Positions 10,738-62,198 are shown, counted from the first letter of the stretch. The stretch: 64,000 bases of DNA from Candidatus Omnitrophota bacterium (GCA_041662125.1 JBAZTA010000003.1:264962-328961), one strand, 5' to 3'. Translations and numbers: made by a program. The notes: generated by a model not told the origin, from the letters alone.

Positions 10738-10747
10738 AAAATATCCC

Positions 10748-12282: not shown

Positions 12283-13302
12283 TTATTGGTCAGCTCGATT
12301 AGCAGCTTTATTAGACAGAGAAATATTATGAGCGCATATCCGACACATAGGACTGAGATAATAATTCCCTGACTTGTGCTGACCGCGAAGCTCTTGTATC
12401 TTAGGGCAATTCCAGAGATCTTTCAAACTCGCAGTATTAACGTTGCCTATAGTAATATTGCCTGCTACATCAGTGGCACAAACACAAACCGTGCCATCGG
12501 TCATGACAACCAAACGTTGAAAAGGCTGTTTACAGCAATACTCATGGAGCGGAACATTGAACGGATTGTTTTTCTGAATTGACCCGAATTCCTGGCAGTA
12601 AGAAATAGTAATTTCATCTACCCTTTTATGCCAATACTCATAGAACTCTCTTGTCTCATGCCTGTTTATGCCGGATTCAGTATACTGCAATCGAATGAAC
12701 GGTTTTCTTGATTTTCCCCGTATATCGATCAAGTTTTTAATATTCTCAATGACCGCATCATAATCGGCGCCAATTCTGATCTTTTCATACGTCTGCTTGG
12801 TAAATCCATCGATTGAAATAATAAGTTGATCCAGCTTTGCTTCTACAATTTCACGGCCTATATTTTGATTCATCAGCGTCGCGTTCGTTAACGAGGTAAC
12901 TTCCAAAATACCTTTAGATTTCGCATAACGCACCATATCCATAAAGTTTTTATTCAGCATAGGCTCACCCCGCCAGCTTAATTTCAAAGCGGGGATCCTA
13001 TATTTTGCGCATTCATCGGCAATTTTTTTAAAAGTATCCATCGCCATAAGGGGAACTTTCGTAGTCTTTGCTACGGGGAGCGTTTCATCACTCTGAAAAC
13101 ACATAGAACACCGCAGGTTGCAAACATTGGAAGCTTCTGCGATGACATCCAAAGGGTATTTTCCAACTTTAAATTTACCCGGGTAAGCGTTAAAACGATA
13201 ACGATAGATATAAAATTGAGGATTGAATCCCCCTTTTTTGTAGAGGTTAGCTACCTTTGTAAAGAAACCTGCTTTAATCTTCCAGTTTTTCTTAAGTTTC
13301 AT
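12283..13302 (-). CDS. Radical SAM / SPASM-domain protein (paralog A)
   Basis: 339 aa. 'CNLRCSMCFQ' radical SAM motif. C-terminal cysteine-rich SPASM-like region 'CCKQPFQRLVVMTDGTVCVCATD...CRICAHN'. Confidence 0.75.
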   Translation of the reverse strand: MKLKKNWKIKAGFFTKVANLYKKGGFNPQFYIYRYRFNAYPGKFKVGKYPLDVIAEASNVCNLRCSMCFQSDETLPVAKTTKVPLMAMDTFKKIADECAKYRIPALKLSWRGEPMLNKNFMDMVRYAKSKGILEVTSLTNATLMNQNIGREIVEAKLDQLIISIDGFTKQTYEKIRIGADYDAVIENIKNLIDIRGKSRKPFIRLQYTESGINRHETREFYEYWHKRVDEITISYCQEFGSIQKNNPFNVPLHEYCCKQPFQRLVVMTDGTVCVCATDVAGNITIGNVNTASLKDLWNCPKIQELRGQHKSGNYYLSPMCRICAHNISLSNKAANRADQ

Positions 13303-14300
13303 TGCGTATCTCTTTTTGAATCAAAAGAATCGGGACAATCAGCGCATAGATGCATTTTTTTGAAACCTCCCTGCCGGTGAAGCTTTCTTACCTTCTGCAT
13401 TATTTCTCCCGTCCAGATATCGGGAACCGTTTGAGTCAAAACATCGCCGATAACATACCCCTTTTTCATATCCCGAGGACAAAGCGTTGCAGTACCATCA
13501 CTCAATATGGTCAGCCGCCGCCATAATTCCGCGCAACAAAAATTATCATCCTGTTTATAATTTTCCCTATGATAAAGCCTTTCTTCTCCCGTTTTACAGT
13601 CAAGATAACGTAAGATCGCTATACGGTTTAGTTTACCCGCCCAATAAGCTATAAACTTGTTTTTCTCGGATGGGTCATCTTCATCCATTTCAATAAAATT
13701 CGCCTTAATATGCAGCCTTGACTTAGGGTTCTGGTTACGCTGCCTGATCAAATCTTCAACCGCTTGCATGACCTTTTCAAATCTTGCCCCGATTCGTATT
13801 TTTTCGTATCTTTCTTTATCGGCGCTATCCAGAGAAATAATAAGCCTGTCAAGGCCGGATTCGATAAGTTTACGGTTAAAATCATGCCCCAGGAGAGTGC
13901 CATTGGTATGCATGTTCACATCAATAACTCCCTTTTCTTTCGCATATCTGATTACTTCAAAAAGTTGCGGGTACAGGGTCGGTTCTCCTAACCCGGTCAA
14001 ATTAAAAGCGCATAATCCATGCGTGCACGCTTGGTCTAATATTTTTTTTACCAAATTAAGATCCATATATCCTTTACCGGGGATATATGCCTGCCGGGGA
14101 CACATAGGGCATTTTAAGTTACAGACGTCAACCGCAAAAAGGTCTATCTGCAACGGAACCTTATCAACGATCCCGGCTTGCGGATACTGGTCCCATTTCC
14201 TTCGGTATTCGATCCACTTTTTATCATGGAATACCAAACCCGTTTTTTTGTCCGTGCCTAAAACCTCCGGAGAAATACTTTTTACCTTAACCCGTATCAT
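13299..14300 (-). CDS. Radical SAM / SPASM-domain protein (paralog B)
   Basis: 333 aa. 'CNLKCPMCPR'. C-terminal 'CCAELWRRLTILSDGTATLCPRD...CADCPD'. Shares 'YEKIRIGA', 'RYAK.KGV', 'DRLIISLD' with paralog A. ATGA overlap with paralog A. Confidence 0.75.
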   Translation of the reverse strand: MIRVKVKSISPEVLGTDKKTGLVFHDKKWIEYRRKWDQYPQAGIVDKVPLQIDLFAVDVCNLKCPMCPRQAYIPGKGYMDLNLVKKILDQACTHGLCAFNLTGLGEPTLYPQLFEVIRYAKEKGVIDVNMHTNGTLLGHDFNRKLIESGLDRLIISLDSADKERYEKIRIGARFEKVMQAVEDLIRQRNQNPKSRLHIKANFIEMDEDDPSEKNKFIAYWAGKLNRIAILRYLDCKTGEERLYHRENYKQDDNFCCAELWRRLTILSDGTATLCPRDMKKGYVIGDVLTQTVPDIWTGEIMQKVRKLHRQGGFKKMHLCADCPDSFDSKRDTQ

Positions 14301-14312
14301 GTATTAAACACC

Positions 14313-15374
14313 TCAAGGATTTAACGGCGAGCCTTCAATCATGTTCCACCCTAATGGTGTCCCTTTTTTTATATCCTTACGCGCTTTTTTTCCCAGGACC
14401 CTTTCCCAATAACGGGGATGTAAACCGTGCCCGGGCCTTATAGAGCGGATATTATCTTTCGAAAATTTTTCACCTTTAAAGATATCTTTCACTACAAAAA
14501 CAGACCTGCGAAAGACTCGATTTTCTTTTTGTTTTTCCGTGAGTTCATATGAAACCTTTCCTAAAGCTTTTTCTGCGGTTCGTATATCAGAGACCATTGT
14601 CCTGAATTCTGCCGGTTCAGTCGAGAATGAGCAGTCGGGGCCGGGATCTTTTCGGGAAAGCGTAAGATGCTTCTCTATGATACATGCACCCAGGGCTATT
14701 GAGGCTACGGCAACAGCACTGCCTAAGGAGTGGTCGGAAAGCCCAACAGGAAAGCCGTATACTTTTGAAAGATCAGGAATCGTATTCAAATTCATTTCTT
14801 TAGATGGTGCAGGATACGCGCTGGTACACTTAAGCAAAGCTATTTTCCTGTTTCCCTCATTAAGGACAGTTTGAACTGCCTCATCTATTTCTGGCCTAGA
14901 GGCCATGCCGGTTGAGATGATGATAGGCTTTCCGGTTGCAGCGACCTTCTTTAAAAAAGGAATATCTACCAGCTCAAATGAAGCGACCTTATATGCGGGC
15001 ACTTTCATTTTTTCCAAATAATCAACCGATGTAAAATCAAAAGGGGTTGAGAAAAAGTCAAGCCCAAGGCTGTCACAGGCCTTCTTTAATCGGGGATGCC
15101 ATTGCCAGGGCGTAAACGCTTCTTGATAAAGCCGGTAAAGATTTTTTCCCGCCCAAACTGTCCCTTTAATCTTAAAATATTTGTTTTCACAATCGATAGT
15201 CATAGTATCCGGAGTATATGTCTGGATCTTTACCGCATCCGCGCCCGAATCGGCAGCGGCCTTTATAATACGGAGGGCTTTATTAAAACTCATAGCATGA
15301 TTCGCTGACATCTCAGCAATGATATATACCGGCTTCCCTGGGCCTATAGTTTTCTTATTGATCTTTATGTTCAT
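14313..15374 (-). CDS. pseI: Pseudaminic acid synthase (NeuB/PseI family nonulosonate synthase)
   Basis: 'IIAEMSANHAMSFNKALRIIKAAADSGADAVKIQTY' NeuB-family TIM barrel. C-terminal SAF-like domain. Start trimmed to 'MNIKINKK' with an upstream SD-like AAAGG. Confidence 0.8.
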   Translation of the reverse strand: MNIKINKKTIGPGKPVYIIAEMSANHAMSFNKALRIIKAAADSGADAVKIQTYTPDTMTIDCENKYFKIKGTVWAGKNLYRLYQEAFTPWQWHPRLKKACDSLGLDFFSTPFDFTSVDYLEKMKVPAYKVASFELVDIPFLKKVAATGKPIIISTGMASRPEIDEAVQTVLNEGNRKIALLKCTSAYPAPSKEMNLNTIPDLSKVYGFPVGLSDHSLGSAVAVASIALGACIIEKHLTLSRKDPGPDCSFSTEPAEFRTMVSDIRTAEKALGKVSYELTEKQKENRVFRRSVFVVKDIFKGEKFSKDNIRSIRPGHGLHPRYWERVLGKKARKDIKKGTPLGWNMIEGSPLNP

Positions 15375-15390
15375 GAATTTTAACCTTTCA

Positions 15391-16089
15391 TCACCCAAAA
15401 ATACGCAGAGCCATAAATGCTTCGGCAAATAAATAGCCTGATTCTGAACCTCTAACCTTCGCCAGTGCCCTTAAAACTTCAGGCGACCGAGGATGAGGAT
15501 CCAGGCGCGCTTCACCTTTGTAAGTTTGCATTGAATTGATCTTTGCAGTAAGATCTGCTTCGGAAACCTCAACATAGACGTTTGGTTCCCATTGCGCTGG
15601 ACGCAGGTACCCGGTGCTGCTGGGGACTTCACCGCATAAAACAGAGATATGCGCATCGGCCGCCGGCCGCGCAGCAACAACGACCGCATTATGGCAATAT
15701 TGATGGTCAATATTCGTACAATAGCGATGATGGGTCAAGATCAAGTCGGGTTTTACGCGGGCAATAATTGCCTCCATCCAATGGACTATTTCTAACAATG
15801 AACTTTTATCCATTTCATTATCAGCGAATTTCCCAAGATAAATATGTTCCTTTGAAACACCTAAGACAGCACAAGCCTTCTGGCAATCTTTTCTTAATGC
15901 GGAGAGTGCGGCTTTCCTTGATTTTAATGATGCTGCGTTTCGACGGCCATGAATGCCTGTCGCGGGGATCGCGACATGAACCTCTGCGCCAAGACGGGTC
16001 AGTTTTTTGATAGTCGCACCTGCCGCTAATGTCTCATCGTCGGGATGCGCGAAAAGTGTCAAAATGGTAGAATAGTCCTTCAGGATCAT
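15391..16089 (-). CDS. PIG-L/LmbE-family N-acetylglucosaminyl deacetylase
   Basis: 232 aa. 'FAHPDDE' zinc-binding motif of the LmbE/PIG-L family. Confidence 0.75.
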   Translation of the reverse strand: MILKDYSTILTLFAHPDDETLAAGATIKKLTRLGAEVHVAIPATGIHGRRNAASLKSRKAALSALRKDCQKACAVLGVSKEHIYLGKFADNEMDKSSLLEIVHWMEAIIARVKPDLILTHHRYCTNIDHQYCHNAVVVAARPAADAHISVLCGEVPSSTGYLRPAQWEPNVYVEVSEADLTAKINSMQTYKGEARLDPHPRSPEVLRALAKVRGSESGYLFAEAFMALRIFG

Positions 16090-16787
16090 TTCCCTCTCCT
16101 TGATTTAGATTGAGTGATTTTAGCTCGGGCATAAAGCGCGCCTTCGCGCATTACAGGGTGAGAAAATTCATACCGTAAACCACCCTGTTCAATAAATGCC
16201 TTTGGATATTCGTCTGCGTCCAGCATGCGGATATGATCGTAGATCTTTCCCAAGGTTTTATGCTTGAGCGCTATCTTACTTTGATCAGGCCGGCGCCGTA
16301 AAAACATTACCGCTTTACCCTGCTGAGCAACTGGCTTTGGTTCCTGCATGATTATTTCCTTGATCATTTTCGCGATGATCTTTGAAGAACGGATATAAAT
16401 ATCCTGGGCCCTTCCTCGCAATGAAAGCTGCCGTTTAAAATAAACCGGCCCGGCATCTAAGACGCCGGTCATTCTTAATGCCGATATTTTAGTGTTTGTA
16501 AACCCGCGGACGATCAAATTCTGTAGAGGGCTGCCCCCCCGCCCAAACGGGACATCTGTCTCGTGAAAACAAACACATTCATAAGAATTCACGATCGAAG
16601 ATGGCACTCGCTTGCTCCAGTGGGGGAAAAAAATATAACGCGGTTTAAAGCGTTTTATTCTTTCAAGTGTTAAATCTTTTGCAGCGGTAATGAGATGCCA
16701 ATTACCTGGATATTTGCTAATACTATTCCTGTAAGCTTTAATATTCCACGGACGTATTGTTGCAATAATATATACTTTTTTACTCAT
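16086..16787 (-). CDS. Formyltransferase-family protein (putative sugar N-formyltransferase)
   Basis: 233 aa. 'HETDVPFGRGGSPLQN' matches the H-x-S/T-x-L-P-x-x-R-G formyl transferase motif. Lacks the Fmt C-terminal tRNA-binding domain. Confidence 0.65.
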   Translation of the reverse strand: MSKKVYIIATIRPWNIKAYRNSISKYPGNWHLITAAKDLTLERIKRFKPRYIFFPHWSKRVPSSIVNSYECVCFHETDVPFGRGGSPLQNLIVRGFTNTKISALRMTGVLDAGPVYFKRQLSLRGRAQDIYIRSSKIIAKMIKEIIMQEPKPVAQQGKAVMFLRRRPDQSKIALKHKTLGKIYDHIRMLDADEYPKAFIEQGGLRYEFSHPVMREGALYARAKITQSKSRRGK

Positions 16788-16799
16788 GGCATCATATTT

Positions 16800-17519
16800 C
16801 TATTGCTGTTTTTGTAAAGGCACATCATAGTCTAGGCGCCCGGAACGTATGATCGCAAGGCTTTTTGGCCCTTCATTGAAAAGAAGATCAATTGCCGACA
16901 TATGCGATATAAAACCTTCAAACATTTGCTTATATACCGGATGCTCATATCGATGATATACCAGGGTTATCCCTTCTTGAGCAAAGACATTATCTTGTTC
17001 TATATAGTCAGCTGCACGTACGGGAGAAAGATATATGTCAGCCTCCAGATAATGACAAATATTTGTCAACAACTTAACCTTTTCGCCGGAAACTGGGATT
17101 TCGGATGCTCTCATAAGCTTTGTTTTGACTCCAAGCTGTTTTTTTAAGAAATTGATCGTGGCTACGTTTAATGTTAAAAGATACTCCCATGATTGATCAT
17201 AGAGCGCTTTCAACTCATCACAATACTGTTTCCAGTACTCAGCACGTTTATAATACTGTTCAATGGTCCCCCAGTGTTTCCTGCACCACGGTGAAGAATT
17301 GCCGGTCTTTACCTCGTTCATTTTCTGTCCCAAGTTTTGAATAACCGGAACGGTTAACCATTTCGACTGATTTTCTGCCGTCTTAATTCTATTGCGTTGC
17401 TGCCACGCCTGTTTTTCGAACTGAACCGTATCCAATAGTACGAACACATCCGCCGTATCCATGAGGTCAAAATACCCTATCCAGGGCAGATATGTCGGCT
17501 GCATGATTACCGCTATCAT
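16800..17519 (-). CDS. WbqC-family protein (function unknown, O-antigen/nonulosonate clusters)
   Basis: 239 aa. N-terminus 'MQPTYLPWIGYFDLM' is the hallmark of the WbqC-like family. Confidence 0.6.
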   Translation of the reverse strand: MIAVIMQPTYLPWIGYFDLMDTADVFVLLDTVQFEKQAWQQRNRIKTAENQSKWLTVPVIQNLGQKMNEVKTGNSSPWCRKHWGTIEQYYKRAEYWKQYCDELKALYDQSWEYLLTLNVATINFLKKQLGVKTKLMRASEIPVSGEKVKLLTNICHYLEADIYLSPVRAADYIEQDNVFAQEGITLVYHRYEHPVYKQMFEGFISHMSAIDLLFNEGPKSLAIIRSGRLDYDVPLQKQQ

Positions 17520-18559
17520 CTGCGCGCCTCTCTCTTAAGATATGCCAGTAATCTTGAAGCAATACGCACAGTGCCGTTGGACGCAATAAGGTTTTTCCCT
17601 TTATAAGCCATATTTTTTCTCATAGGATAATTTTCTAATAACTCTTCTGCGGCATGTACTATTCTTTCGTCTGAAACATCGCTATGCATTCCCAGGCTTA
17701 CAACAGCACCTGCCGTATCAAAAATCCTCGCCTCTTTCTCCTGTTGCTCGTTTTGTGAAACAACCAGCGCAGGGACACCTAAACAACATGCTTCATACAA
17801 TAACGTACCTGCGCTCAGAAACGCAACGTCCGCTTGAGATAGCGCATCAGCAATGTGAGCTATATTACGGCTTATTATAAATCGGGCATCATTCTTCAGA
17901 ATTGAAGTAATTTTACCAACCTGCGCAACTGCAGCGCCAAGAATGACATGAAACTTGATCGAATGTTTAAGTTTTTTCAACAGAGGCACTACACGTAACA
18001 TTAAATTGCCGGAGTCGCTACCGCCAAAACAGACAAGGACCTTTTTGACTTTCGCGGATATTTTATTTTTTTTAAACGCCAGAGCCGCGAAATCAGGATG
18101 CATGATAATGTAGTCACGCCCGGTTAGATATTTATCTGACGGTATGCCTGGCGTTTTAGGTAAGCCAAGGAGATTAGGGCGAATCAGGTAATCCTGGCCG
18201 TTAAGACCGGGGCCTTCATCGTCAATACAAACGGTCATTCCTGATAATCCTTTTATATGTTTTGCTTCTTTTTGATCAATAGTAAGCAAATCGGCTATTG
18301 CCATATCAAAACGAGCTTCCTTTGGAGAATTCCGCCGGACATAGATATCGTAATCTATATCAGGGATAAACTTCCTGACAACATCTTTATTATTGGTCTC
18401 AATGGTAAAATGGCATTTCGTTAAATTTAAAAAACCCAACATCAATGACCGGCAACGGGACAGATGCCCCAACCCGGTTTTTTTATCAGCATCAACTCTG
18501 AAATATACAGAAACAACCCCTTGAGTGATATGCCCTTTCTTTTTTGTATCATTCACCAT
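17516..18559 (-). CDS. pseG: UDP-2,4-diacetamido-2,4,6-trideoxy-beta-L-altropyranose hydrolase (PseG/SpsG family)
   Basis: 347 aa. 'VYFRVDADKKTGLGHLSRCRSL' matches the GxGHxxRC motif of the PseG family. GT-B-like fold. Confidence 0.75.
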   Translation of the reverse strand: MVNDTKKKGHITQGVVSVYFRVDADKKTGLGHLSRCRSLMLGFLNLTKCHFTIETNNKDVVRKFIPDIDYDIYVRRNSPKEARFDMAIADLLTIDQKEAKHIKGLSGMTVCIDDEGPGLNGQDYLIRPNLLGLPKTPGIPSDKYLTGRDYIIMHPDFAALAFKKNKISAKVKKVLVCFGGSDSGNLMLRVVPLLKKLKHSIKFHVILGAAVAQVGKITSILKNDARFIISRNIAHIADALSQADVAFLSAGTLLYEACCLGVPALVVSQNEQQEKEARIFDTAGAVVSLGMHSDVSDERIVHAAEELLENYPMRKNMAYKGKNLIASNGTVRIASRLLAYLKREARR

Positions 18560-18568
18560 TTTATGGAC

Positions 18569-19342
18569 TCATTGAGCGCTTTTTTTTAAAAAAGACCTGT
18601 CTTTTTCCTTTGATTTCATCAATCCTTCATTCCTCAAAAAACCCTGATTTAATACAGAGAGCCCCGGATTCTTTTCAAGAAGCGCCAAAATATCGTTCAT
18701 ACCAAAACATGGATTGAGTGGATACAACTTTTCATATATGGTTTTTACAAATTCAAAATCTTCTGGTTCATCAACAGTCCAGCGTAAAGCGGAAAGATCC
18801 TTATTCGATGCAAGATTTACTATTTTAAAACGTTTGGGTTGTCCTTCAAAAAAAAGCGAGATGTGTTCTAATTGAGATGGCAATAAAGCCTCACTATGAG
18901 CCTCCTGAAGAGCTTTAAAAGCAAATATCTCTGCATCAAGACCATCGGGATATGTTGGCGGCATACAATTAGTGCCATAATCGCCTTTTTTATTCAGATA
19001 AATGCGCACCAACGCGTCAATAACGCTCATGTCGATCAAAGGGCAGTCTCCGGTAAGGCGGACGATGTGATCGGGTTTAAACTTGAGCGCTGCCTGATAA
19101 AACCGGTCAAGGACATTTTCCAGATTTCCGCAAAAAACGCTCACTTTAAGGCGTTTCCCTAAATCAACAATCTGTCTGTCCTCGGAAGAAGTACTCGTGA
19201 GAACAACTACGCGGTCAATTGTTTCGCAAAGTTTAACACGCTCAATTTCTAATTCTAACATCGGCCTTCCCAAGATCGGTTTGAGGACTTTATTAGGAAA
19301 ACGCTTTGATGACATTCTGGCTTGAATAAATGCTGCTATCAT
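18569..19342 (-). CDS. pseF: Acylneuraminate/pseudaminate cytidylyltransferase-family protein (PseF/SpsF-like)
   Basis: 257 aa. 'IQARMSSKRFPNKVLKPILGRPML' matches the CMP-NeuAc synthetase family N-terminus. Confidence 0.65.
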   Translation of the reverse strand: MIAAFIQARMSSKRFPNKVLKPILGRPMLELEIERVKLCETIDRVVVLTSTSSEDRQIVDLGKRLKVSVFCGNLENVLDRFYQAALKFKPDHIVRLTGDCPLIDMSVIDALVRIYLNKKGDYGTNCMPPTYPDGLDAEIFAFKALQEAHSEALLPSQLEHISLFFEGQPKRFKIVNLASNKDLSALRWTVDEPEDFEFVKTIYEKLYPLNPCFGMNDILALLEKNPGLSVLNQGFLRNEGLMKSKEKDRSFLKKSAQ

Positions 19343-19345
19343 TAC

Positions 19346-20248
19346 TTACCTCATCCAAAGGGTAGGGTTTAAAATCTTTTCATCTACTTGATCAAAATAC
19401 TGCGAGACTAAAGGGAGTAAATTGCGTGCCGGTTTTCTTCCCCAGCTTCCCAGATTCTCCTCTAGCTGTTCAGGTGTTTCTACCCCGATAACCAGTTTTG
19501 CCGTAGGAAATCTTTCTTTTAGATATCCCAATGCTAATTCATGTTTCGTGACATTAAGCTGTTGGGCAAGTGATTTTATTTTTTCAAGCACCGGCTTGGC
19601 AAAAGACATTTGCCCAGAAAGCTCGTTTGGATCCATAAGAATAAGACCCTGAAGAAAAACACTCCGGATATATATCTGCCGGCCCGCTTTCTCTGCCAGT
19701 TCAAAAACTCTCTGCTTCTCAAATCTGCTGTCCAGGATATTAGCAGGTAGTTGCACCATATCAAACCCGTTAATAAGCAACGCTTCTAAAGCTCTTTTGG
19801 GAGAATAAACCGAAACACCTACCTTTTTGATCTTTCCGGACTTAACAAAACTATGCAAAATCTCACCAAGGCCGTTTGGCAACTGACTCAAAAGGTCTTC
19901 TTTATGAAGCATCAATCCATACAAAGATGAAACCCCTAATCTTTCTAAAGACCTATTCAAGGCTTCAGACATGATCTGAGGATCGCAATGGTTGAGTTCA
20001 GGATTGATTTTACTGATAACTTGTGCCTCGTGCGAAATGCTCAGTTGAGAAAATGCCGTTCCCAGCATTTTCTCGCTTCCTCCATAGTCTTGTGCGGTAT
20101 CAAACTCTCTAATCCCATTTTCCCAAGCTGTCCGTATTATTTCAGTCACCCTCGCCTGGTCAGGTTGACCAGTTTTGTTGGCTACACCATACAAAAGTCC
20201 AAACTGTACGGTCCCTAACACAAAGGGATGAAAGTTTCCTGGATTCAT
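19346..20248 (-). CDS. Aldo/keto reductase
   Basis: 300 aa. 'EFDTAQDYGGSEKMLG' AKR signature region. Confidence 0.7.
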   Translation of the reverse strand: MNPGNFHPFVLGTVQFGLLYGVANKTGQPDQARVTEIIRTAWENGIREFDTAQDYGGSEKMLGTAFSQLSISHEAQVISKINPELNHCDPQIMSEALNRSLERLGVSSLYGLMLHKEDLLSQLPNGLGEILHSFVKSGKIKKVGVSVYSPKRALEALLINGFDMVQLPANILDSRFEKQRVFELAEKAGRQIYIRSVFLQGLILMDPNELSGQMSFAKPVLEKIKSLAQQLNVTKHELALGYLKERFPTAKLVIGVETPEQLEENLGSWGRKPARNLLPLVSQYFDQVDEKILNPTLWMR

Positions 20249-20263
20249 AATAAAGAATAATGC

Positions 20264-21580
20264 TTACGTCAGGCGTTTAAAGCCGGCAGTTGACGGTTTT
20301 CCTCTTAATTGAAGCTCAACATCCCCTGTTCTCAAAGCTTTTGAAATATGGGCAAATGTCTCATCGACTGCAATAAGATACCGCTTCACGTGAGACGGCT
20401 GATGTGCGTACATGGAATAAAACGATGTAGACGCCAAAAATCCTCTTTCGAGCATTAATTGTACAAATAACGCCTTTAAAACTAACGTAAAGTCGTATTC
20501 GAACATAAAATGGCTAAGCGGGGCAATCCCGGCAACATGGATCTTTATCCCATGTTTTTCAGCCAGCATCTTCCAGCCTTCCTGGACCTGCTTTCCTACC
20601 AATACCAGATGCTTTCCTACGTCGCATACCTGATGTTTCTTTATGGTCGCCAATGCAGCAGTAGGCCCAATGCGTTCTGTCCACATAGTACTGCTGATAA
20701 ATGTCTTTTGCGCAGCATCCATAAAGCGTTCTTTGCCTATAATCGCAGCTATTGGATAGCCATTGCCTAAAGCTTTTGAGAATACGGCTATATCTGGCTC
20801 AATATCATAAACTAAGTGTGCTCCGCCTGAATTCAGTCGAAACCCGGCAGAAATCTCATCTATCACAAAAACAGCTTTTGTCTTGTCTGCAAGAGAACGA
20901 ACCTCTTTAAAAAACCCCGGTTCAGGCTCATCATCCCGTATGGGCTCCATAACAATAGCAGCCAGATCTTTTCCATGCTGAGCTATAATAGTATTAAGCT
21001 CATCAATATGATTATATCGAAAAGGAATTGCTGTCCCGGTTAAACCTTTCGGGACTCCGCGTGGATCCAATCCTGATAAAAGATGCTCACCTAATGAATC
21101 TTTAGTTCCTAAATTCGCCGAAAGATACCAATCATGCCACCCATGATACCCGCAAAAAGCCACGACATCTTTACCCGTATACGCCCGGGCGATCCTAACA
21201 GCTATAGCCATTGATTCTCCACCAGTGCGGGCATAGCGCACTTTATCTGCCCACGGATGAATCTGACACAGCAAATCAGCAAGTTCAACTTCTTCCGGGC
21301 AATTTAAAGAAGAGCTCGATCCTTTTTTTATCGCTTTACACACAGCTTCATCAACATCATCATCGGCGTAGCCAAGCACATTTGCACCAATGCCGCTGAT
21401 GCTCATGTCAATATACTTATTCCCATCTAAATCCCAAACGTGCGCTCCTTTTGCCTTACTATAATAGCCGGGCCATACTCCGAGTGAAAACTGATCAGGC
21501 CGTTTTGAAAGAAGCTGGGTCATACCGGGTATACGCTGCTTTGCGCGCTGCTGCATTAATTGGCTTTTGCTGGTATTCAT
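20264..21580 (-). CDS. Class III (GSA-aminomutase-like) PLP-dependent aminotransferase
   Basis: 438 aa. 'GAHVWDLDGNKYIDMSISGIGANVLGY' is typical of the class III aminotransferase N-terminal region. No heme-pathway context. Confidence 0.7.
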   Translation of the reverse strand: MNTSKSQLMQQRAKQRIPGMTQLLSKRPDQFSLGVWPGYYSKAKGAHVWDLDGNKYIDMSISGIGANVLGYADDDVDEAVCKAIKKGSSSSLNCPEEVELADLLCQIHPWADKVRYARTGGESMAIAVRIARAYTGKDVVAFCGYHGWHDWYLSANLGTKDSLGEHLLSGLDPRGVPKGLTGTAIPFRYNHIDELNTIIAQHGKDLAAIVMEPIRDDEPEPGFFKEVRSLADKTKAVFVIDEISAGFRLNSGGAHLVYDIEPDIAVFSKALGNGYPIAAIIGKERFMDAAQKTFISSTMWTERIGPTAALATIKKHQVCDVGKHLVLVGKQVQEGWKMLAEKHGIKIHVAGIAPLSHFMFEYDFTLVLKALFVQLMLERGFLASTSFYSMYAHQPSHVKRYLIAVDETFAHISKALRTGDVELQLRGKPSTAGFKRLT

Positions 21581-21597
21581 AATTAACTCCGGGTATT

Positions 21598-22635
21598 TTA
21601 AAGCATACGATCTTTGATCACAGGCCCCTTGGGCAGAAATTCCACACGAGTTCTCATAGCTGTTTCCAAATATTCAGCTGGAGTATAGAGGCGCTCGCCT
21701 ATAAGATTACTCTTGTATTCTATTGGTTTGATGCCATCTTTACGAAAGAGAGAACAACGCAGAGAACCATTTTTACACGCCACATAGACGCCATTTTCAA
21801 AAAGGCGGTAAATAATACCGTATTGAAACGGGTGGAATGTTCCATCAAAAGTAACTGAAGTGGCGCTACGAACTCTGACCTGCTTTCCCATGAGAAACGT
21901 GCTTGCGCCCTTGTAGGGACGGCCAAATGCCTGAGCAAACCGCTCAATTTCTTGGCCAGACCACTTCCAATCAATAAAACCATGTACATCAGTAAGCAGC
22001 CGGGGCATATAAATACTCATATGCTCAGACTGTCCATTACGCTGCAACGGCTTTTTTAATTTTATATCTTGCAGGAGGCTTTTAAATACCCCGTACTCAT
22101 GGATTGATTTTTCATTAAGATAGTCTTCTGGGTATTGGCAACTTACCGGATATTCGAACTCTTTAAGAGCAAGTATATCTCCGTTATCGATCCCCTCATC
22201 AACCAAGTGCCATACTGCATAGCCGACGCGATTACCCTGCATGATCATCCAAGAATAACCTCCACCGCCTCTCTGCTGAGGAAGACGGGAGGAGTGGCCA
22301 TTAATTATCCTGTGGCCAAATCGTTCAATAATATCTTTGCTAAAGATATACGGAGAACCGCTTGAGATGCCGATAGTTTGATCAGTAATAAATTTAAAAA
22401 GGCCGGGGCATTTCTGAAGTGATTCGGCAAAAAAACATTTAATTTTCAGACGCTTAAGAAAAACTTCCCACGTCTCTCCCGTATGAGCAAGCATCTCTGC
22501 CTGACGAGGCCCTGTCAAAACGAGGATCTCATCAAAATGTTTTCCCATAATTATTCGGGACAGAGTTTGACTTGCCCCAAAGAGGACTGCTCGCGAGATA
22601 GTGCCGAAATCGAAATTGCGTTCTCTCATAATCAT
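21598..22635 (-). CDS. Formyltransferase-family protein with C-terminal extension (putative sugar N-formyl/acyl transferase)
   Basis: 345 aa. 'IINGHSSRLPQQRGGGGYSW' formyl transferase catalytic motif. C-terminal about 120 aa of unknown function. Confidence 0.6.
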   Translation of the reverse strand: MIMRERNFDFGTISRAVLFGASQTLSRIIMGKHFDEILVLTGPRQAEMLAHTGETWEVFLKRLKIKCFFAESLQKCPGLFKFITDQTIGISSGSPYIFSKDIIERFGHRIINGHSSRLPQQRGGGGYSWMIMQGNRVGYAVWHLVDEGIDNGDILALKEFEYPVSCQYPEDYLNEKSIHEYGVFKSLLQDIKLKKPLQRNGQSEHMSIYMPRLLTDVHGFIDWKWSGQEIERFAQAFGRPYKGASTFLMGKQVRVRSATSVTFDGTFHPFQYGIIYRLFENGVYVACKNGSLRCSLFRKDGIKPIEYKSNLIGERLYTPAEYLETAMRTRVEFLPKGPVIKDRML

Positions 22636-22667
22636 ACCTCAAATTTTAAATTAAAATTATTAAATAC

Positions 22668-23825
22668 CTATAGTAGTTTAAGGACCGCTAAAATAACCCG
22701 GGCAACATCATTATCTGTCATCGCGGGAAAAAGAGGCAAAGACAAACATTCTTTATAATACTTTTCAGCCTCGGGAAAATCCTTCCTGGAAAAATGAAAA
22801 TTCTTTTCATAAAAAGGTTGGCGGTACACAGGGATATAATGCACCTGGGTGCCGACACCTTCCCAAGTGAGCTTCTCAATAAACTCCTTCCGTGACAACT
22901 TTAGCTTCGCAAAATCGATACGCACGACATATAAATGGTACGCGCACAATGCATCATCCGTAGTAACCGGACGCAGGCAGGAATGTTTTTTGAACGCGGC
23001 ATTATAGAGTGAAACAATATGCCGGCGCCGGGCAATAAAACTCTCGATCTTCCTTAATTGGCTTATCCCCAGGGCAGCTTGAATATCCGTCAAACGATAA
23101 TTAAACCCCAGTTGGCGCATCTCATAGTACCAGGGCCCGGGGCTATTTTTTATTAAAAGAGGGCTTCTCGTAACTCCGTGCGACCGCAGGCAACAAAGAA
23201 AGTCATACAATTTTTTATTATTCGTCATGACCGCCCCCCCCTCACCGGTCGTAATCGTTTTAACCGGATGAAAAGAAAAAATAGTCATGTCTGAATATTT
23301 ACCATTACCGACTCGACTGCCGTCAAGATAGCGGCTGCCGATCGCATGAGCGGCATCTTCGATCACAAAACAATTCTTACGTTTGGCAAAAGCGGATATT
23401 TCTTTCATCAGAGCAGGACGTCCTGCAAAATGGACAGGGATAATGACCTTGGTATCCTTTCGAATAACGCCTTCCAGGGCCCCCAATGATACATTCACCG
23501 TTTCTGCATCGATATCCGCAAACAAGGGAATAATACCGTTATACACCAAAGCATTCACCGACGCCAAAAAAGTGATCGGCGATGTAACACCAGTCGCCCC
23601 CTTCTTCAGGCCAAGTGCAGCTACTGCCAAATGAAGGGCGGCTGTGCCGCTGGAGACAGCAACACAATACTTCGCGCCAGTATATGCGCACAACGCGCGT
23701 TCAAATTCAAAAACACGCGGGCCTTGCGTTAAAAATTGACTTTTAAGAACCTTCACTATTGATAGGACATCATCATCATCGATCAGTTGTCTTCCATAGG
23801 GCAGGCAGGAACGAATGCGTTTCAT
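22668..23825 (-). CDS. pseC: UDP-4-amino-4,6-dideoxy-N-acetyl-beta-L-altrosamine transaminase (DegT family)
   Basis: 'LPYGRQLIDDDDVLSIVKVLKSQFLTQGPRVFEFE' and Lys motif 'FSFHPVKTITTGEGGAVMT'. Immediately follows pseB. Alternative upstream Met at 23840. Confidence 0.8.
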   Translation of the reverse strand: MKRIRSCLPYGRQLIDDDDVLSIVKVLKSQFLTQGPRVFEFERALCAYTGAKYCVAVSSGTAALHLAVAALGLKKGATGVTSPITFLASVNALVYNGIIPLFADIDAETVNVSLGALEGVIRKDTKVIIPVHFAGRPALMKEISAFAKRKNCFVIEDAAHAIGSRYLDGSRVGNGKYSDMTIFSFHPVKTITTGEGGAVMTNNKKLYDFLCCLRSHGVTRSPLLIKNSPGPWYYEMRQLGFNYRLTDIQAALGISQLRKIESFIARRRHIVSLYNAAFKKHSCLRPVTTDDALCAYHLYVVRIDFAKLKLSRKEFIEKLTWEGVGTQVHYIPVYRQPFYEKNFHFSRKDFPEAEKYYKECLSLPLFPAMTDNDVARVILAVLKLL

Positions 23826-23826
23826 A

Positions 23827-24828
23827 TCAGTGTGCCTCATTTTTTAGATTTTTAACCATATCGGCAAGCTCATCAAGGCTGAGGCGCTCCCGATTCAAGT
23901 CACTGCGGTACTCAAAACCACCCGGTAAAGGTTTTCCGCGTTTATATTTCGAAAAGGCTTCATCTAAATACAAAAACTGCGGCAACACAACATAATATTC
24001 CTTAAGATCAAAAGCTATGCGCGCCTCGTCTTCAGAAATCAATGTTTCATGGATCTTTTCACCAGGACGGATACCGATCGGTTTTAATCGGCACTCCGGC
24101 TCAATAGCCTTTGCTAAATCCACTACCCGCATAGACGGGATCTTAGGAATAAAAATCTCACCGCCAACAGATTCGTCCAATGCTTTGAGCACCAAATCAA
24201 CGCCTTGATCAAGTGTTATCCAAAAACGCGTCATTCGTTCATCGGTAATTGGAAATTCTTTAATACCCCGATTCTTGAGCTCTAGGAAAAAAGGGATCAC
24301 ACTTCCCCTGGACCCGACAACATTTCCATAACGCACGACTGAAAATTTTACCCGGGCGCCGCCATACGCATTCGCCGCGACAAAGAGCTTCTCAGCAACA
24401 AGTTTGGTAGCGCCATAAAGATTAGCCGGGCTAACGGCCTTATCCGTTGACAAAGCGATAACTTTCTTAACTCCAGCGTCAATGGCCACATCAACGATAT
24501 TATTAGCGCCATCGACATTGGTTCTGACCGCTTCAGTGGGATTGTATTCCAAGGCAGGTACCTGTTTCAAAGCAGCAGCATGAATAATATAGTCAACTCC
24601 TTCAAAAGCGCGGTGCATACGATTTTTATCGCGGATATCTCCGATAAAATAACGCATAGATGGATACTGTTTATCCGAGAAAATCTTTTCCATCTCATGC
24701 TGTTTATATTCATCACGGCTGAAAATGATCAGTTTTGCCGGTTTATACCGTTTGAGCACTATTTCTGTGAATTTATGCCCAAAAGACCCTGTTCCCCCAG
24801 TAATTAAAATAGTCTTATTATTTAACAT
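23827..24828 (-). CDS. pseB: UDP-N-acetylglucosamine 4,6-dehydratase (inverting), PseB/FlaA1 family
   Basis: 333 aa. 'MLNNKTILITGGTGSFGHKFTEIVL' PseB/CapD-like N-terminus. Strong SD 'AAGAAGGGG' upstream. Confidence 0.85.
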   Translation of the reverse strand: MLNNKTILITGGTGSFGHKFTEIVLKRYKPAKLIIFSRDEYKQHEMEKIFSDKQYPSMRYFIGDIRDKNRMHRAFEGVDYIIHAAALKQVPALEYNPTEAVRTNVDGANNIVDVAIDAGVKKVIALSTDKAVSPANLYGATKLVAEKLFVAANAYGGARVKFSVVRYGNVVGSRGSVIPFFLELKNRGIKEFPITDERMTRFWITLDQGVDLVLKALDESVGGEIFIPKIPSMRVVDLAKAIEPECRLKPIGIRPGEKIHETLISEDEARIAFDLKEYYVVLPQFLYLDEAFSKYKRGKPLPGGFEYRSDLNRERLSLDELADMVKNLKNEAH

Positions 24829-24916: not shown

Positions 24917-26362
24917 CTATTCCTTGATCTCAGGCTTACCTAAACCTTTTTTTTCAAAAACAAAATAGAGAATAATGCCCAAGAAAATAGGCAAAATCTG
25001 CATGCGGTAACGGCAAACGGTACCCAAATTATAACCGACAAACCCATAAGCAATTGACCAAACCACAATTAAAGAAATTGCCCATATGAAAAAGGGGGTA
25101 AATAATTCACGCCAGCGAACCTTAAAAACAGCAATAATAAATAAAATCAGTAAGACAGTGTCTTCAAGGCCAGCCATGAGCCCGAAAATATTTTTAACCT
25201 CTCCCGGCAAAGGCCTGAATAAAACCGTAAATACCCCGCGAGGGACAAAAAGAGCCAAATCTTTGAGTCCTCGGTATTTAATCTTTACAGTCACCCCTGA
25301 ATTTTCATCAATTGCAGTCTCATACGCCGGCTTATTTTCACCCACAGGATCCTTAGGATCACGAGCCAAAGCGTTATCACCGGAATCTGCTTTTTTAAAC
25401 ATTTTACCATCAGGTTTTGCTTCAAGCAGACTACCCCCGATTGAAAATGTTGTGAATCTTTTATTAGCAAAAATTGAAAGATCCTTGAACGATTTAAGAT
25501 AAAATATCTTCGTGACCCCATGAGTTGAAAACACCAATATTATGATTGAAGAAACAAAAACTAACACATAACCTATTTTTTTAAAACTATTTCTATTCAA
25601 ACACATCATACGGACTACCATTAACAAAACGGGCAAGCCTAAAATAATTCCCAGCCATAAGCGGATATATACCGAAGTGATCAACCCCAAAATTATAAAC
25701 ACGGAAGAAGAAAACGATTCAGTTCTTATTAACTTGACGACGCCATAGCTATAGACGGCTATGGCGATAAGGAGAATCGGTTCTTTGCCGATAACAGAAG
25801 ACCAAAAAAGTATCGATGGGAATAATGCAAAGACGTATAAAAGGCGCACGATATCTCTTCGCAAAAACTCAGCCGCAGCAAGATAAAAAACATAGCAGGC
25901 AAAAAGGCCGATCATTCCAAAACTTGCCTTTATAGCATGAAACGAGTCAAGGAAACTGTTACGCAGGACCTGAATAAGTAATATCACCGGATTGGATGGC
26001 CCCAGGACCTCCATCCTTCTCCATTCGCGGATATGATGCGTAGCAGCGTTAAAATACCCATATGAATCAACCTGATAATGGTGCTCGTAAAAAAGCATCA
26101 AACCAAGCATGACAAAACACTTCACCATCCAAATATAGCCGAGAGCTTTCTTATGAGCTGATGGCACAGGCCAAAAATATATCGTAACTCCCAAAAAAGC
26201 CGCCCATGCTACCCCGATCACATAATCTAAACGGATATTCTTTTGCGGTATACGTTTACCCAAAATCTCAACCAGCTTTAAAAAATGCGGCAGCGTATAA
26301 ACAAAAACTAAAAACCCGACCACTATTAACAAAATTAAAAAAAGATTATTCTTTTTCAACAC
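24917..26362 (-). CDS. Polytopic membrane protein with large soluble loop (possible Wzy-like polymerase/ligase or membrane glycosyl/acyl transferase)
   Basis: About 480 aa with at least 10 hydrophobic segments and a roughly 130-aa hydrophilic loop. No ATG near the 5' end, so GTG/TTG start at about 26362/26359 was inferred just after the upstream stop. Confidence 0.35.
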   Translation of the reverse strand: MLKKNNLFLILLIVVGFLVFVYTLPHFLKLVEILGKRIPQKNIRLDYVIGVAWAAFLGVTIYFWPVPSAHKKALGYIWMVKCFVMLGLMLFYEHHYQVDSYGYFNAATHHIREWRRMEVLGPSNPVILLIQVLRNSFLDSFHAIKASFGMIGLFACYVFYLAAAEFLRRDIVRLLYVFALFPSILFWSSVIGKEPILLIAIAVYSYGVVKLIRTESFSSSVFIILGLITSVYIRLWLGIILGLPVLLMVVRMMCLNRNSFKKIGYVLVFVSSIIILVFSTHGVTKIFYLKSFKDLSIFANKRFTTFSIGGSLLEAKPDGKMFKKADSGDNALARDPKDPVGENKPAYETAIDENSGVTVKIKYRGLKDLALFVPRGVFTVLFRPLPGEVKNIFGLMAGLEDTVLLILFIIAVFKVRWRELFTPFFIWAISLIVVWSIAYGFVGYNLGTVCRYRMQILPIFLGIILYFVFEKKGLGKPEIKE

Positions 26363-26372
26363 AACACCTTTT

Positions 26373-27413
26373 TTAGTTGTCCTTGCATAAAAAATGCCAA
26401 TATGGCAGTGTATCAGAAATAACCACACTTTTAAATGAATCCTGCAACGCGGCAATATCTTTCTTACTAAACCGTTGTTCTATACGCGTAAAAAACCGGT
26501 CATAAACATCTTGACGGATCCGCGCAAGCGTTTTTCCTCTATAGCCTTCATACAGCGGGACAGAACAACGCAAATTCATTTTATGCAACAAAGCTCCGAG
26601 TGAAATTAACGGAAGATACACGGTAATTGCGACAACACTGGTAAATACTGACCGGAAAAATTCATTTCTAACATGCGATACCGCTAAACGGACCATGGTT
26701 ACCAGGGAAAGTAAAACTTGGAAAAATCTCGGCCGGTTATCAAGTGAATAATACAAATATATCAAAAGAGCAGGTGAATAACTTTTAAGTTTTCTGACGG
26801 TTGCCAAAGCGTTAACCGGCATATGGTGCAAAACACCAAGACAAAACAGGAAATCAGCGAACGGGGTTGCAAAGGGGAGACAATTGATATCAGCCATAAA
26901 AAAAATAGCATTATCGCGGCGGCGCAGGTTCCTGCGGGCCACAAAGATCGCTTCTGAAAAATCAACAAGCACCAATTCACGGCAGGCATCCCCAAGGAAA
27001 TAACTCCAGCGGCCGATACCGCAACCTAAATCGCAGACACGCGCATGCTTCAAATCGTCAATATTGACGAGGTCAAAATATTGTGAAAACTCTTCTCTAT
27101 GCTCAGGTAAAATATCGGGAAACTGCTGCCATTCTGACCCAAAGGTAAATTGGATATCTTCCGCGAAATCAGCTGAAACAGCAGTTTTTTTAATACTGCC
27201 GGCCAGCCTTTTTTGAAGCGCAGGCGGATATTGATCAGGCTCAAGCAAGATAATAACATCATCAACAATCGGATACCTGCGATTGTTGACAATAAGTAAA
27301 TCACCTTTAAGCTCGATATTGCGGGTTCCAAAAATATCTTTCAGGCTAGCGATCTTATTGTCATAAAATAGAGTTTTTCCGGGCTTTACACTATTTTGTT
27401 TAAGCTCGTTCAT
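26373..27413 (-). CDS. Class I SAM-dependent methyltransferase with hydrophobic C-terminal extension
   Basis: 346 aa. Motif I 'VCDLGCGIGRWSYFL'. C-terminal about 100 aa hydrophobic. Confidence 0.65.
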   Translation of the reverse strand: MNELKQNSVKPGKTLFYDNKIASLKDIFGTRNIELKGDLLIVNNRRYPIVDDVIILLEPDQYPPALQKRLAGSIKKTAVSADFAEDIQFTFGSEWQQFPDILPEHREEFSQYFDLVNIDDLKHARVCDLGCGIGRWSYFLGDACRELVLVDFSEAIFVARRNLRRRDNAIFFMADINCLPFATPFADFLFCLGVLHHMPVNALATVRKLKSYSPALLIYLYYSLDNRPRFFQVLLSLVTMVRLAVSHVRNEFFRSVFTSVVAITVYLPLISLGALLHKMNLRCSVPLYEGYRGKTLARIRQDVYDRFFTRIEQRFSKKDIAALQDSFKSVVISDTLPYWHFLCKDN

Positions 27414-28341: not shown

Positions 28342-29280
28342 TCACCCCAGCCCTAACTGACGCATCACCTTCGGATGGTCGATTTCAAACTGATCGGCAT
28401 GAGGACGTAAACACGCATCATCTTTTGTGCGAGTCACTAGTACGACATTACCAGGATTGATTACCTGTTGGGCCTCAACCGCCAGATGCAGCCAGGAACC
28501 GTTCACACTTTTTGAATCATCAAGCACCAGAAGTTTCTTGGTACGCCGGACGTTGTTTAAAATCGTACTCCAATTGACCGGAAGCATGGCATTGACAGAA
28601 AAAAGCGTTGCGTCAAGACCATGTTTTTTTAGGTCATGGTAAAGCAAGAGCCCCTGCGGAAAGGAAAAGTTAAAACAGGCAATCGTCAGGCCACTGCCAT
28701 GGGAATATTGGAATATTTCGGCGTTTTCATCACAGGAAACACCCTCAGTTGTTTCCAAAACCTCCTGGCGGCATAGGCGCTGACTGATACCGATAATACG
28801 AAAACCGGGAGCAATGAGATGTTTACTCAAAATGAATTCCGCGTCAGCTTTATTCGTGATCGCATACCCGGGAATACGGGCAATGGAACAAAAATCAGCA
28901 AAATTATTCAAAGAGGATTGCGGCCCTTCATAGCCGCTATCAACAACGACATTGACTATAGTAAAAGAACTTCGAGCCTTCCTGCCCCTGACCAAGTTAT
29001 AGGTATTCACAAGCTGGTCGATACCCAGGAGCAGGAAATCCTGCTGTTTCATGAAAAATATTGATGAAACCCCGTTCAGCATTAAACCAAACCCCGTCCC
29101 CACAAGGGTATTTTCGCAATTAGGGGTATTCAAAACAAACTGGCCGTCTTGATTTTTGAGGCCTTTGGTCAGGCCTCCGATACAGCTTCCGGCGGCGATA
29201 TTTTGCCCAAACATGACTAATGGCTTAATTTCAGAAACTCGCTGCCGGATCAATCCATTGATGTGCGTAATATAATTCAT
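28342..29280 (-). CDS. Thiamin-diphosphate-dependent E1 component beta-subunit-like protein (transketolase-like Pyr/C-terminal domains)
   Basis: 312 aa. N-terminal region aligns in pattern with pyruvate/acetoin dehydrogenase E1-beta ('...FGQNIAAGSCIGGLTKGL...NTPNCENTLVGTGFGLMLNG'). ATGA-coupled to the E1-alpha-like gene. Confidence 0.65.
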   Translation of the reverse strand: MNYITHINGLIRQRVSEIKPLVMFGQNIAAGSCIGGLTKGLKNQDGQFVLNTPNCENTLVGTGFGLMLNGVSSIFFMKQQDFLLLGIDQLVNTYNLVRGRKARSSFTIVNVVVDSGYEGPQSSLNNFADFCSIARIPGYAITNKADAEFILSKHLIAPGFRIIGISQRLCRQEVLETTEGVSCDENAEIFQYSHGSGLTIACFNFSFPQGLLLYHDLKKHGLDATLFSVNAMLPVNWSTILNNVRRTKKLLVLDDSKSVNGSWLHLAVEAQQVINPGNVVLVTRTKDDACLRPHADQFEIDHPKVMRQLGLG

Positions 29281-32231: not shown

Positions 32232-32259
32232 AGGTATTTTATCGCAGCAAGACTGCGCT

Positions 32260-37165: not shown

Positions 37166-37169
37166 GCTT

Positions 37170-52455: not shown

Positions 52456-52470
52456 ATATATTCCTCTTGG

Positions 52471-55039: not shown

Positions 55040-55044
55040 ATGAT

Positions 55045-62193: not shown

Positions 62194-62198
62194 AAGTT

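Follow-up and report, generated by a model that had tools for sequence, protein, structure and literature searches.

A putative pseudaminic-acid-type operon with formyltransferase genes and no detectable N-acetyltransferase in a Candidatus Omnitrophota bacterium

Pseudaminic acids (Pse) occur on flagella, pili, capsules and O-antigens, where their N-acyl groups set antigenicity, charge and phage recognition. To our knowledge, the enzymes that diversify the N5 and N7 positions are largely unknown. PseJ is cited as the enzyme that completes the pathway to Pse5Ac7Fo, and replacement of the acetyltransferase PseH by a formyltransferase has already been described (PMC11040635; PDB 6ci2). Here we analyze a stretch of 64,000 nucleotides from a Candidatus Omnitrophota bacterium (GCA_041662125.1 JBAZTA010000003.1:264962-328961; the whole stretch is called the window below). 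Within it, 11 co-oriented and tightly packed minus-strand genes (24828-14313, intergenic gaps of -38 to +32 bp) are arranged in the transcription order PseB-PseC-Fmt1-AT3-AKR-SpsF-type cytidylyltransferase-PseG-like-WbqC-Fmt2-PIG-L-PseI, where Fmt1 and Fmt2 are formyltransferase-like proteins, AT3 is a class-III aminotransferase and AKR is an aldo/keto reductase (Table 1). With a probability of about 0.5, we read this region as a single operon for a CMP-activated Pse-type nonulosonic acid that is without any N-acetyltransferase.

Compared with the canonical PseBCHGIF pathway of Campylobacter and Helicobacter, the operon has in common PseB, PseC and PseI at the equivalog level and a PseG-like hydrolase; it differs in lacking PseH, in carrying an SpsF-type cytidylyltransferase instead of PseF, and in the additional Fmt1, AT3, AKR and WbqC/Fmt2/PIG-L genes. 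With the PseJ pathway (PDB 6ci2/6ci4) it would share a formyltransferase in the N-acylation role of a Pse pathway. PseJ, however, is a single-domain protein of 192-217 residues, whereas Fmt1 has 345 residues and a C-terminal domain of the Fmt/ArnA type, and only a 76-residue core aligns between the two. Also unlike PseJ, members of the Fmt1 family usually occur with a class-III aminotransferase and in many cases with an acetyltransferase of the Gcn5-related (GNAT) family. An embedded deacetylase and formyltransferase are likewise present in the nonulosonate cluster of Ca. Kuenenia stuttgartiensis, an organism with CMP-nonulosonates that carry one formylated and one free amine (SugarBase preprint, 2026; bioRxiv 10.64898/2026.04.20.719630); the likeness is by description, and that cluster is Leg-type according to its authors, whereas the genes here are Pse-type. 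Group I polar flagellin glycosylation islands of Aeromonas contain pseB, pseC, an aldo/keto reductase, pseF, a class-III aminotransferase, pseG and pseI, and some strains add a deacetylase (PMC7874193). This gene set is common with the window, but formyltransferases and WbqC are not reported there. Genes for AKRs, class-III aminotransferases and deacetylases are common in the Pse clusters of Aeromonas, Legionella and Vibrio.

PseB, PseC and PseI all pass the cut-offs of their equivalog models (Table 1), and at this family-model level the three are indicated to make a Pse-type backbone. The PseI alignment begins at residue 34, and the true start of the gene is probably downstream of the listed TTG. 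The PseG-like protein aligns to TIGR03590 over nearly its full length (residues 18-278) and scores 124 bits, under the cut-off of 153.55. The cytidylyltransferase fails the PseF model TIGR03584 (33 bits against a cut-off of 205.7) and is of the SpsF type (CTP_transf_3); in L019, a related locus from a metagenome-assembled genome (MAG) of the PVC (Planctomycetes-Verrucomicrobia-Chlamydiae) group, the SpsF-type enzyme is fused to PseG. An initial, sequence-only reading of this region had listed PseB, PseC, PseG, PseI and a PseF-like cytidylyltransferase as co-oriented genes. Its calls for PseB, PseC and PseI hold at the equivalog level, and its WbqC and LmbE/PIG-L calls are confirmed by Pfam; the PseG call falls short of its cut-off and the PseF-like label gives way to SpsF. 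The same list had left out AT3 (21580-20264) and AKR (20248-19346), both of which lie inside the operon.

Pfam scans of every minus-strand open reading frame (ORF) of 100 aa or more in the window turned up no GNAT, nor did jackhmmer, run on the window from a PseH-like GNAT as seed. All six-frame ORFs of at least 40 aa from the window and the 9.5 kb past its left end were also searched with a profile of 35 GNAT sequences and with a NeuD-like seed; nothing rose above noise, the best score being 8.6 bits. Neither a PseH (TIGR03585 GNAT) nor an LbH (hexapeptide) acetyltransferase was found in the 64-kb window or these 9.5 kb. The sequence-only claim that the window encodes no GNAT is borne out, and no canonical pseH came to light nearby, within the window and the 9.5 kb beyond. 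Unless PseH is encoded elsewhere, which we consider improbable (see below), the cluster would be unable to N-acetylate the new amine.

Fmt1, whose motif region reads INGHSSRLPQQRGGG...VDEGIDNGD, is the only one of the two formyltransferase-like proteins with both the full HxSxLPxxRG motif and the Asn-x-His...Asp triad. Asn, His and Asp form the catalytic triad of N10-formyl-tetrahydrofolate (THF) transferases, and N112, H114 and D150 of Fmt1 are invariant in a family alignment of 15 sequences. The AlphaFold (AF2) model of Fmt1 (pLDDT 91.5) is closest to the Met-tRNA formyltransferase Fmt and the N-terminal formyltransferase domain of ArnA (TMq ~0.7), with further matches to the sugar N-formyltransferases WlaRD, FdtF and QdtF. 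Fmt1 fails the Met-tRNA formyltransferase equivalog TIGR00460 (62.5 bits, cut-off 201.5), and its best per-residue match in the PDB is to PseJ (6ci2), which aligns to core residues 88-163 (76 residues) with 39.7 bits. The invariant G20 would fall outside the shorter JGI gene call of 316 aa, being encoded upstream of it, and this favors the long Fmt1 ORF. Neither GC content nor GC3 is anomalous, giving no compositional sign of recent Fmt1 transfer. Fmt1 appears from its sequence to be an intact, canonical and apparently active formyltransferase of the N10-formyl-THF type, and its target nitrogen may be either N7 or a third amine. A word-indexed protein search had returned 17 homologs, and the view that the family is rare was dropped when an exhaustive profile search gave 645 representatives (E<=1e-30, 50% clustering). 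Fusions of an Fmt1-type protein to a C-terminal Acetyltransf_3 GNAT were seen in P0260, P0324, P0340, P0367 and L027 (10001-11641); beside the L027 fusion lie another Fmt1-like gene and a fragment of a THF dehydrogenase/cyclohydrolase. We know of no described bifunctional formyl/acetyl transferase for nonulosonate precursors.

Fmt1 directly follows PseC in the window, in loci L028 and L019, and in many metagenome loci. The closest loci share the order PseB-PseC-[slot]-AT3-AKR-CTase-PseG-WbqC-Fmt2-PIG-L-PseI-rSAM-rSAM (CTase, cytidylyltransferase; rSAM, radical-SAM gene), and the content of the slot varies. It is Fmt1 in the window, in L028 (77% identical to the Fmt1 of the window) and in L019 (37% identical), which has a NeuD-family acetyltransferase upstream of PseB. 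It is a GNAT of 195 aa in the Planctomycetales MAG L002, whose other genes are 64-93% identical to those of the window (PseB 93%), and a GNAT of 197 aa in the JGI 3300075153 contig (Fmt2 84% identical). By blastn, the window and L002 are collinear with 77-79% DNA identity on both sides of the slot; the exception is window 22703-21590 (Fmt1) against L002 4462-5149 (GNAT). This exchange of a GNAT and an Fmt1 cassette was considered as proof of equal function, an argument weakened by the subtype of the GNAT and by the Fmt1::GNAT fusions. Some well-covered loci contain Fmt1 and PseB/PseC with neither AT3 nor an acetyltransferase, and besides Fmt1 only Fmt2 or WbqC are candidates in the window operon to acylate the PseC amine. 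An N-formyl, non-standard Pse derivative is the most economical product, because an apparently active formyltransferase stands directly after PseC.

The second formyltransferase-like protein, Fmt2 (motif region CVCFHETDVPFGRGG), has Cys in place of the catalytic Asn; HxSxLPxxRG formyltransferase status, which the sequence-only reading gave to both proteins, applies in full to Fmt1 alone. Fmt2 matches PDB 1zgh with 218 bits and PF21553 with 70.7 bits, reaches 28.7 bits on TIGR00460 (cut-off 201.5), and keeps H75 and D111 invariant across 19 aligned sequences. This 1zgh-like family has at least 7,972 matches at E<=1e-20; a plasmid search for Fmt2 gave a single match. PIG-L is the immediate neighbor of Fmt2 in 13 of 13 genome loci, with 4-bp overlaps, across ~9 phyla (Planctomycetales, Pelagibacteraceae, Bradyrhizobium, Clostridiaceae, Desulfovibrionaceae, Bdellovibrionales, Vicinamibacterales, Kiritimatiellia and Peribacteria). 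With or without WbqC, the pair stands beside a PseH-like GNAT in L002, the JGI contig, the Peribacteria locus L014, a Synechococcus NIES-970 plasmid (L026) and several metagenome loci. PseH is the best or only NCBIfam match of the GNATs beside Fmt2-PIG-L in full Pse sets, below cut-off (31-49 bits). The suggestion that Fmt2, WbqC and PIG-L stand in place of PseH does not survive this observation; because the Fmt2-PIG-L pair coexists with PseH-like GNATs, it is better regarded as an add-on to the Pse pathway. PIG-L itself scores 85.9 bits on PF02585 (cut-off 28.2), has the AHPDDE metal motif, and finds its best NCBIfam matches in BshB2, BshB1 and MshB, all under cut-off. By these family matches it is, as had been proposed, a good candidate for removing the GlcNAc-derived N-acetyl group (future N5), and the most economical role for the pair would be to remove this group and re-acylate the amine.

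WbqC belongs to a family with 2,612 matches, and a full-text literature search for "WbqC" found no functional study; we know of no WbqC protein with ligase activity. Its predicted model (pLDDT 94.6) has a BshC-like fold with a Rossmann domain like that of class-I aminoacyl-tRNA synthetases. On plasmids of Bacillus mycoides and Mycobacterium branderi, WbqC adjoins PIG-L and has a FemAB-family or GNAT protein as well as aminotransferases on its flanks; at other loci DegT aminotransferases are its direct or close neighbors. Fold and neighborhood together suggest that PIG-L, WbqC and Fmt2 may form a deacetylase-ligase-cap sequence akin to mycothiol and bacillithiol synthesis (MshB/BshB, MshC/BshC and the MshD cap). 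The points in common are the family matches of PIG-L, the predicted fold of WbqC and an adjacent N-acyl-transferring partner, Fmt2; here, in contrast, the substrate would be a nonulosonate precursor, and WbqC is not related to BshC or MshC at the sequence level. The conserved block in L020 (B. mycoides pBWB401) and L023 (the M. branderi plasmid) consists of a sugar dehydrogenase, a DegT protein, an epimerase, an aminotransferase, a FemAB/GNAT protein (~300 aa), WbqC and PIG-L, spans Firmicutes and Actinobacteria and has a major facilitator superfamily transporter downstream. Its make-up resembles that of a pathway to an aminoacylated amino-sugar metabolite.

The pathway we favor, again with a probability of about 0.5, has Fmt1 producing N7-formyl as in the PseJ pathway, PIG-L and Fmt2, probably via WbqC, remodeling N5, and AKR and AT3 acting at a further position. 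As judged from family models, PseB and PseC would turn UDP-GlcNAc into UDP-4-amino-4,6-dideoxy-beta-L-AltNAc, and Fmt1 would formylate the PseC-derived 4-amine, the future N7. UDP would then be removed by the PseG-like hydrolase, PseI would join the hexose with phosphoenolpyruvate, and the SpsF-type cytidylyltransferase would activate the sugar, with CMP-Pse5Ac7Fo as the core product. As an add-on, PIG-L may strip the GlcNAc-derived 5-N-acetyl group and Fmt2 may re-acylate the freed amine with formyl; in this lineage, WbqC, a putative BshC-like ligase that might attach a carboxylate or an amino acid, probably acts before re-acylation. AKR and AT3 would introduce or epimerize a further position; by oxidation and transamination they probably convert a hydroxyl of the (CMP-)sugar into an extra amine, and Fmt1 may formylate this AT3-derived amine too. 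The sugar would then go to the surrounding Wzx/Wzy-type glycan assembly genes.

Several observations weigh against this assignment. Neighborhoods were counted in the 25 of 80 metagenome loci with at least four genes on each side of Fmt1, within eight genes of it. A class-III aminotransferase, the most frequent co-located gene, is found in 19/25 of these loci, more than PseC (16/25); AKR or MocA occurs in 16/25 and an acetyltransferase in 12/25. The orders MocA-AT3-Fmt1 and AKR-Fmt1-AT3 recur, as does PseB-PseC-Fmt1-AKR-CTase-AT3-PseG-GNAT-PseI. Fmt1::GNAT fusions make up four of the five longest top matches, Fmt1 homologs coexist with PseH-like GNATs in L015, L037 and L062, and in L015-17 Fmt1 adjoins a PseG::GNAT fusion. 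The GNAT in the L002 slot shares 47-53% identity with GNATs that are fused to Fmt1 or encoded just downstream of it, but only 22-30% with those in the PseH position beside PseG/PseI. Because it belongs to the Fmt1-partner subtype, the window and L002 may each keep one half of an Fmt1 and GNAT pair, which would be differential loss and not functional replacement. In Fmt2 the catalytic Asn is absent throughout the family alignment, position 73 being C, V, A or I in 19/19 aligned sequences. The likeness of WbqC to BshC is confined to the fold, since a profile search of PDB sequences returned no BshC or MshC and only spurious matches, and the WbqC sequence has no HIGH or KMSKS motif. Finally, the search for pseH covered ~74 kb of the contig, with ~320 kb more of the same contig and the rest of the genome outside it. 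The sequence-only proposal of an N7-formyl or otherwise non-acetyl Pse keeps its footing in a Pse-type core without an acetyltransferase and a formyltransferase after PseC, and is qualified by a family that tracks AT3 and AKR/MocA more than PseC. Separately, locus L015 has two NeuB-family synthases in one cluster: a divergent one after PseC (3737-4807) and, after the PseG::GNAT fusion, one that is PseI-like (10610-11386).

These neighborhoods bear on the alternative that survives best, although we still think it rather unlikely: an AKR or MocA dehydrogenase, AT3 and Fmt1 would form a module that adds a formamido group at a third position, e.g. C8 or C4 of the CMP-sugar, with N7 formylated by Fmt2 or left free, and the product would be a tri-amino nonulosonate. 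The 19/25 and 16/25 co-locations of AT3 and of AKR or MocA with Fmt1 homologs, the recurring MocA-AT3-Fmt1 order, and the occurrence of Fmt1 alongside PseH-like GNATs and in GNAT fusions are as such a module would predict. AKR alternates with Gfo/Idh/MocA oxidoreductases beside AT3 and Fmt1 in related loci; it has no solved-structure relative at E<=1e-10. The PDB relatives of AT3 are glutamate-1-semialdehyde (GSA) aminomutases and gentamicin C-6' aminotransferases, and the relation to sugar C-6' aminotransferases also favors a third amine. In Kdo8N synthesis (KdnB/KdnA), oxidation followed by transamination places a side-chain amine on an ulosonic acid. An 8-amino nonulosonate is described from Flexibacter/Tenacibaculum maritimum (PMC3210612), and free-amine nonulosonates from Kuenenia. 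Kdo8N and the T. maritimum sugar are precedents for a side-chain amine on an ulosonic acid, but the enzyme families differ from AT3 and AKR. Moreover, AT3 and AKR are widely present without Fmt1 (Aeromonas group I islands, Legionella Sg6, L002 and L010), certain Fmt1 loci are without AT3, the constant Fmt2-PIG-L pairing suggests that Fmt2 acts on a deacetylated amine and not on N7, and AKRs are usually reductive.

It is less likely again that the operon makes a heavily N-remodeled Pse-type sugar, not described before, by two routes together. In one, by analogy with the thiol pathways, PIG-L, the BshC-like WbqC and an Fmt2 formyl cap would turn the 5-N-acetyl group into an N-formyl-aminoacyl or similar group; in the other, an AKR/MocA dehydrogenase, the class-III aminotransferase and Fmt1 would install a third, formylated amino group.

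Ordinary Pse5Ac7Ac, made with a PseH encoded elsewhere in the genome and only decorated later by the extra enzymes, seems improbable. The inspected DNA is ~74 kb of a 395,841-bp contig, Ga0376277_0000172 of JGI metagenome 3300037810, and the Leg acetyltransferase gene of C. jejuni stands apart from its cluster, but the acetyltransferase stays inside the operon in L002 and the JGI contig (slot GNAT) and in L019 (NeuD-like, beside PseB). The window and L028 are each independently without an acetyltransferase yet keep Fmt1, and the operon is otherwise complete and tightly packed. It is very improbable that other amino sugars of the 64-kb cluster, and not the nonulosonate, are the targets of Fmt1 and/or Fmt2: a second DegT aminotransferase (2794-1649) does occur in the window with short-chain dehydrogenase/reductase (SDR) and RmlC-like partners, its product likewise without an acyltransferase, but Fmt1 and Fmt2 are embedded among Pse genes, in a synteny kept across phyla regardless of other sugar genes.

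Exchange of formyl for acetyl in Pse biosynthesis is already known (PseJ, Pse5Ac7Fo). New here are the gene combination, the lack of an acetyltransferase, an Fmt1 lineage with two domains that is separate from PseJ, the prediction of a BshC-like fold for WbqC, and neighborhood evidence for two putative add-on modules. The operon probably makes a formylated, further remodeled variant of a known sugar and probably does not represent a new kind of pathway.

Table 1. Genes and other features of the operon in the window, with the model, domain or alignment behind each assignment.
Feature	Coordinates	Strand	Support
PseB, inverting UDP-GlcNAc 4,6-dehydratase/5-epimerase	23827..24828	-	TIGR03589 505 bits (cut-off 407.75)
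PseC, aminotransferase giving UDP-4-amino-4,6-dideoxy-beta-L-AltNAc	22668..23840	-	TIGR03588 484 bits (cut-off 423.5)
Fmt1, two-domain N-formyltransferase, 345 aa	21598..22635	-	Formyl_trans_N core + Formyl_trans_C (Pfam)
Variable cassette, sole block unaligned with the closest related locus	21590..22703	-	blastn vs L002
AT3, class-III (GSA-aminomutase-like) aminotransferase, 438 aa	20264..21580	-	PF00202 132 bits
AKR, aldo/keto reductase, 300 aa	19346..20248	-	PF00248 109 bits
SpsF-type cytidylyltransferase (CTP_transf_3), presumed CMP-nonulosonate synthetase	18569..19342	-	PF02348 101 bits
PseG-like UDP-sugar hydrolase	17516..18559	-	TIGR03590 124 bits
WbqC-family protein, predicted BshC/class-I aminoacyl-tRNA-synthetase-like fold	16800..17519	-	PF08889 248 bits
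Fmt2, Asn-less formyltransferase-fold protein, 1zgh family, 233 aa	16086..16787	-	PF21553
PIG-L/LmbE-family de-N-acetylase	15391..16089	-	PF02585 86 bits
PseI, pseudaminic acid synthase	14313..15428	-	TIGR03586 492 bits (cut-off 340.25); NeuB + SAF Pfam domains
Two radical-SAM/SPASM genes	12283..14300	-	Pfam; syntenic with operon in relatives

By Pfam scan, the operon does not end with PseI: two conserved radical-SAM/SPASM genes follow, and then a Wzx flippase. The two radical-SAM/SPASM paralogs, ~31% identical to each other, are syntenic directly after PseI in L019, L028 and the JGI 3300075153 contig (71-72% identity) and may modify the nonulosonate. Just upstream of PseB are a 512-aa ORF without a Pfam or NCBIfam match (24917-26455, minus strand) and a class-I methyltransferase (26373-27413, minus strand); L002 and the JGI contig keep both genes at this place (64% and 75% identity). 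The 512-aa ORF could be a Pse transferase or other tailoring enzyme; its start is probably mis-set, because the TTG overlaps the methyltransferase by 83 bp.

Every real gene of the window is on the minus strand, and the GC content is ~0.42. Pfam scans indicate a single, very large cluster for glycan biosynthesis that fills the entire 64 kb. Numerous SDR epimerases/dehydratases are encoded there, together with B12/radical-SAM enzymes, C- and O-methyltransferases, thiamine pyrophosphate (TPP) enzymes, heptose-pathway genes, glycosyltransferases, a carbamoyltransferase and the Wzx flippase. The flanks viewed were 9.5 kb beyond the left end, where an initiating transferase, a PglF-like dehydratase and a Wzy_C protein are encoded, and ~1.2 kb beyond the right end. 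Three sets of TPP-dependent enzymes (E1 alpha/beta-like and acetolactate-synthase-like; 28342-30206, 47028-48812 and 51391-53436, minus strand) and two nearby TylC3-type C-methyltransferases (35918-37216 and 57571-58821) suggest branched-chain sugars with two-carbon or methyl branches. Three B12-binding radical-SAM enzymes in one glycan cluster (window 2776-4275 and 9349-10737, minus strand; L024 19859-21131) are likely sugar C-methylases; one of them scores 146 bits, below cut-off, on the anammox "ladderane" B12-rSAM model. Two heptose-type activation sets (32260-34469 and 54461-56571, minus strand) comprise, in one set, a GHMP kinase and an NTP-transferase/HAD-phosphatase fusion and, in the other, a GmhA-like SIS isomerase and an HldE-like kinase/adenylyltransferase. 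A carbamoyltransferase, an SxtJ-like protein and a DUF5989 gene lie in this order (59982-62229, minus strand), a trio also known from saxitoxin clusters that here presumably carbamoylates a sugar. No Pfam match was obtained for an 884-aa ORF in the middle of the cluster (42616-45270, minus strand) or for ORFs 6408-7148, 8182-9318, 31140-32309 and 39503-40756.

The locus and its relatives constitute a natural gene-content series, with Fmt1 only, GNAT only, or both, and offer three testable accessory modules drawn from very large uncharacterized families (1zgh-like Fmt2, WbqC and Fmt1). If the two-route synthesis of a heavily N-remodeled sugar were true, it would give first functions to the WbqC family, the 1zgh-like Fmt family and the AKR/class-III aminotransferase genes common in Pse clusters, those of Aeromonas and Legionella among them. 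Once functions are assigned, these modules would help in predicting nonulosonate structures from genomes and would provide enzymes for making modified CMP-Pse donors.

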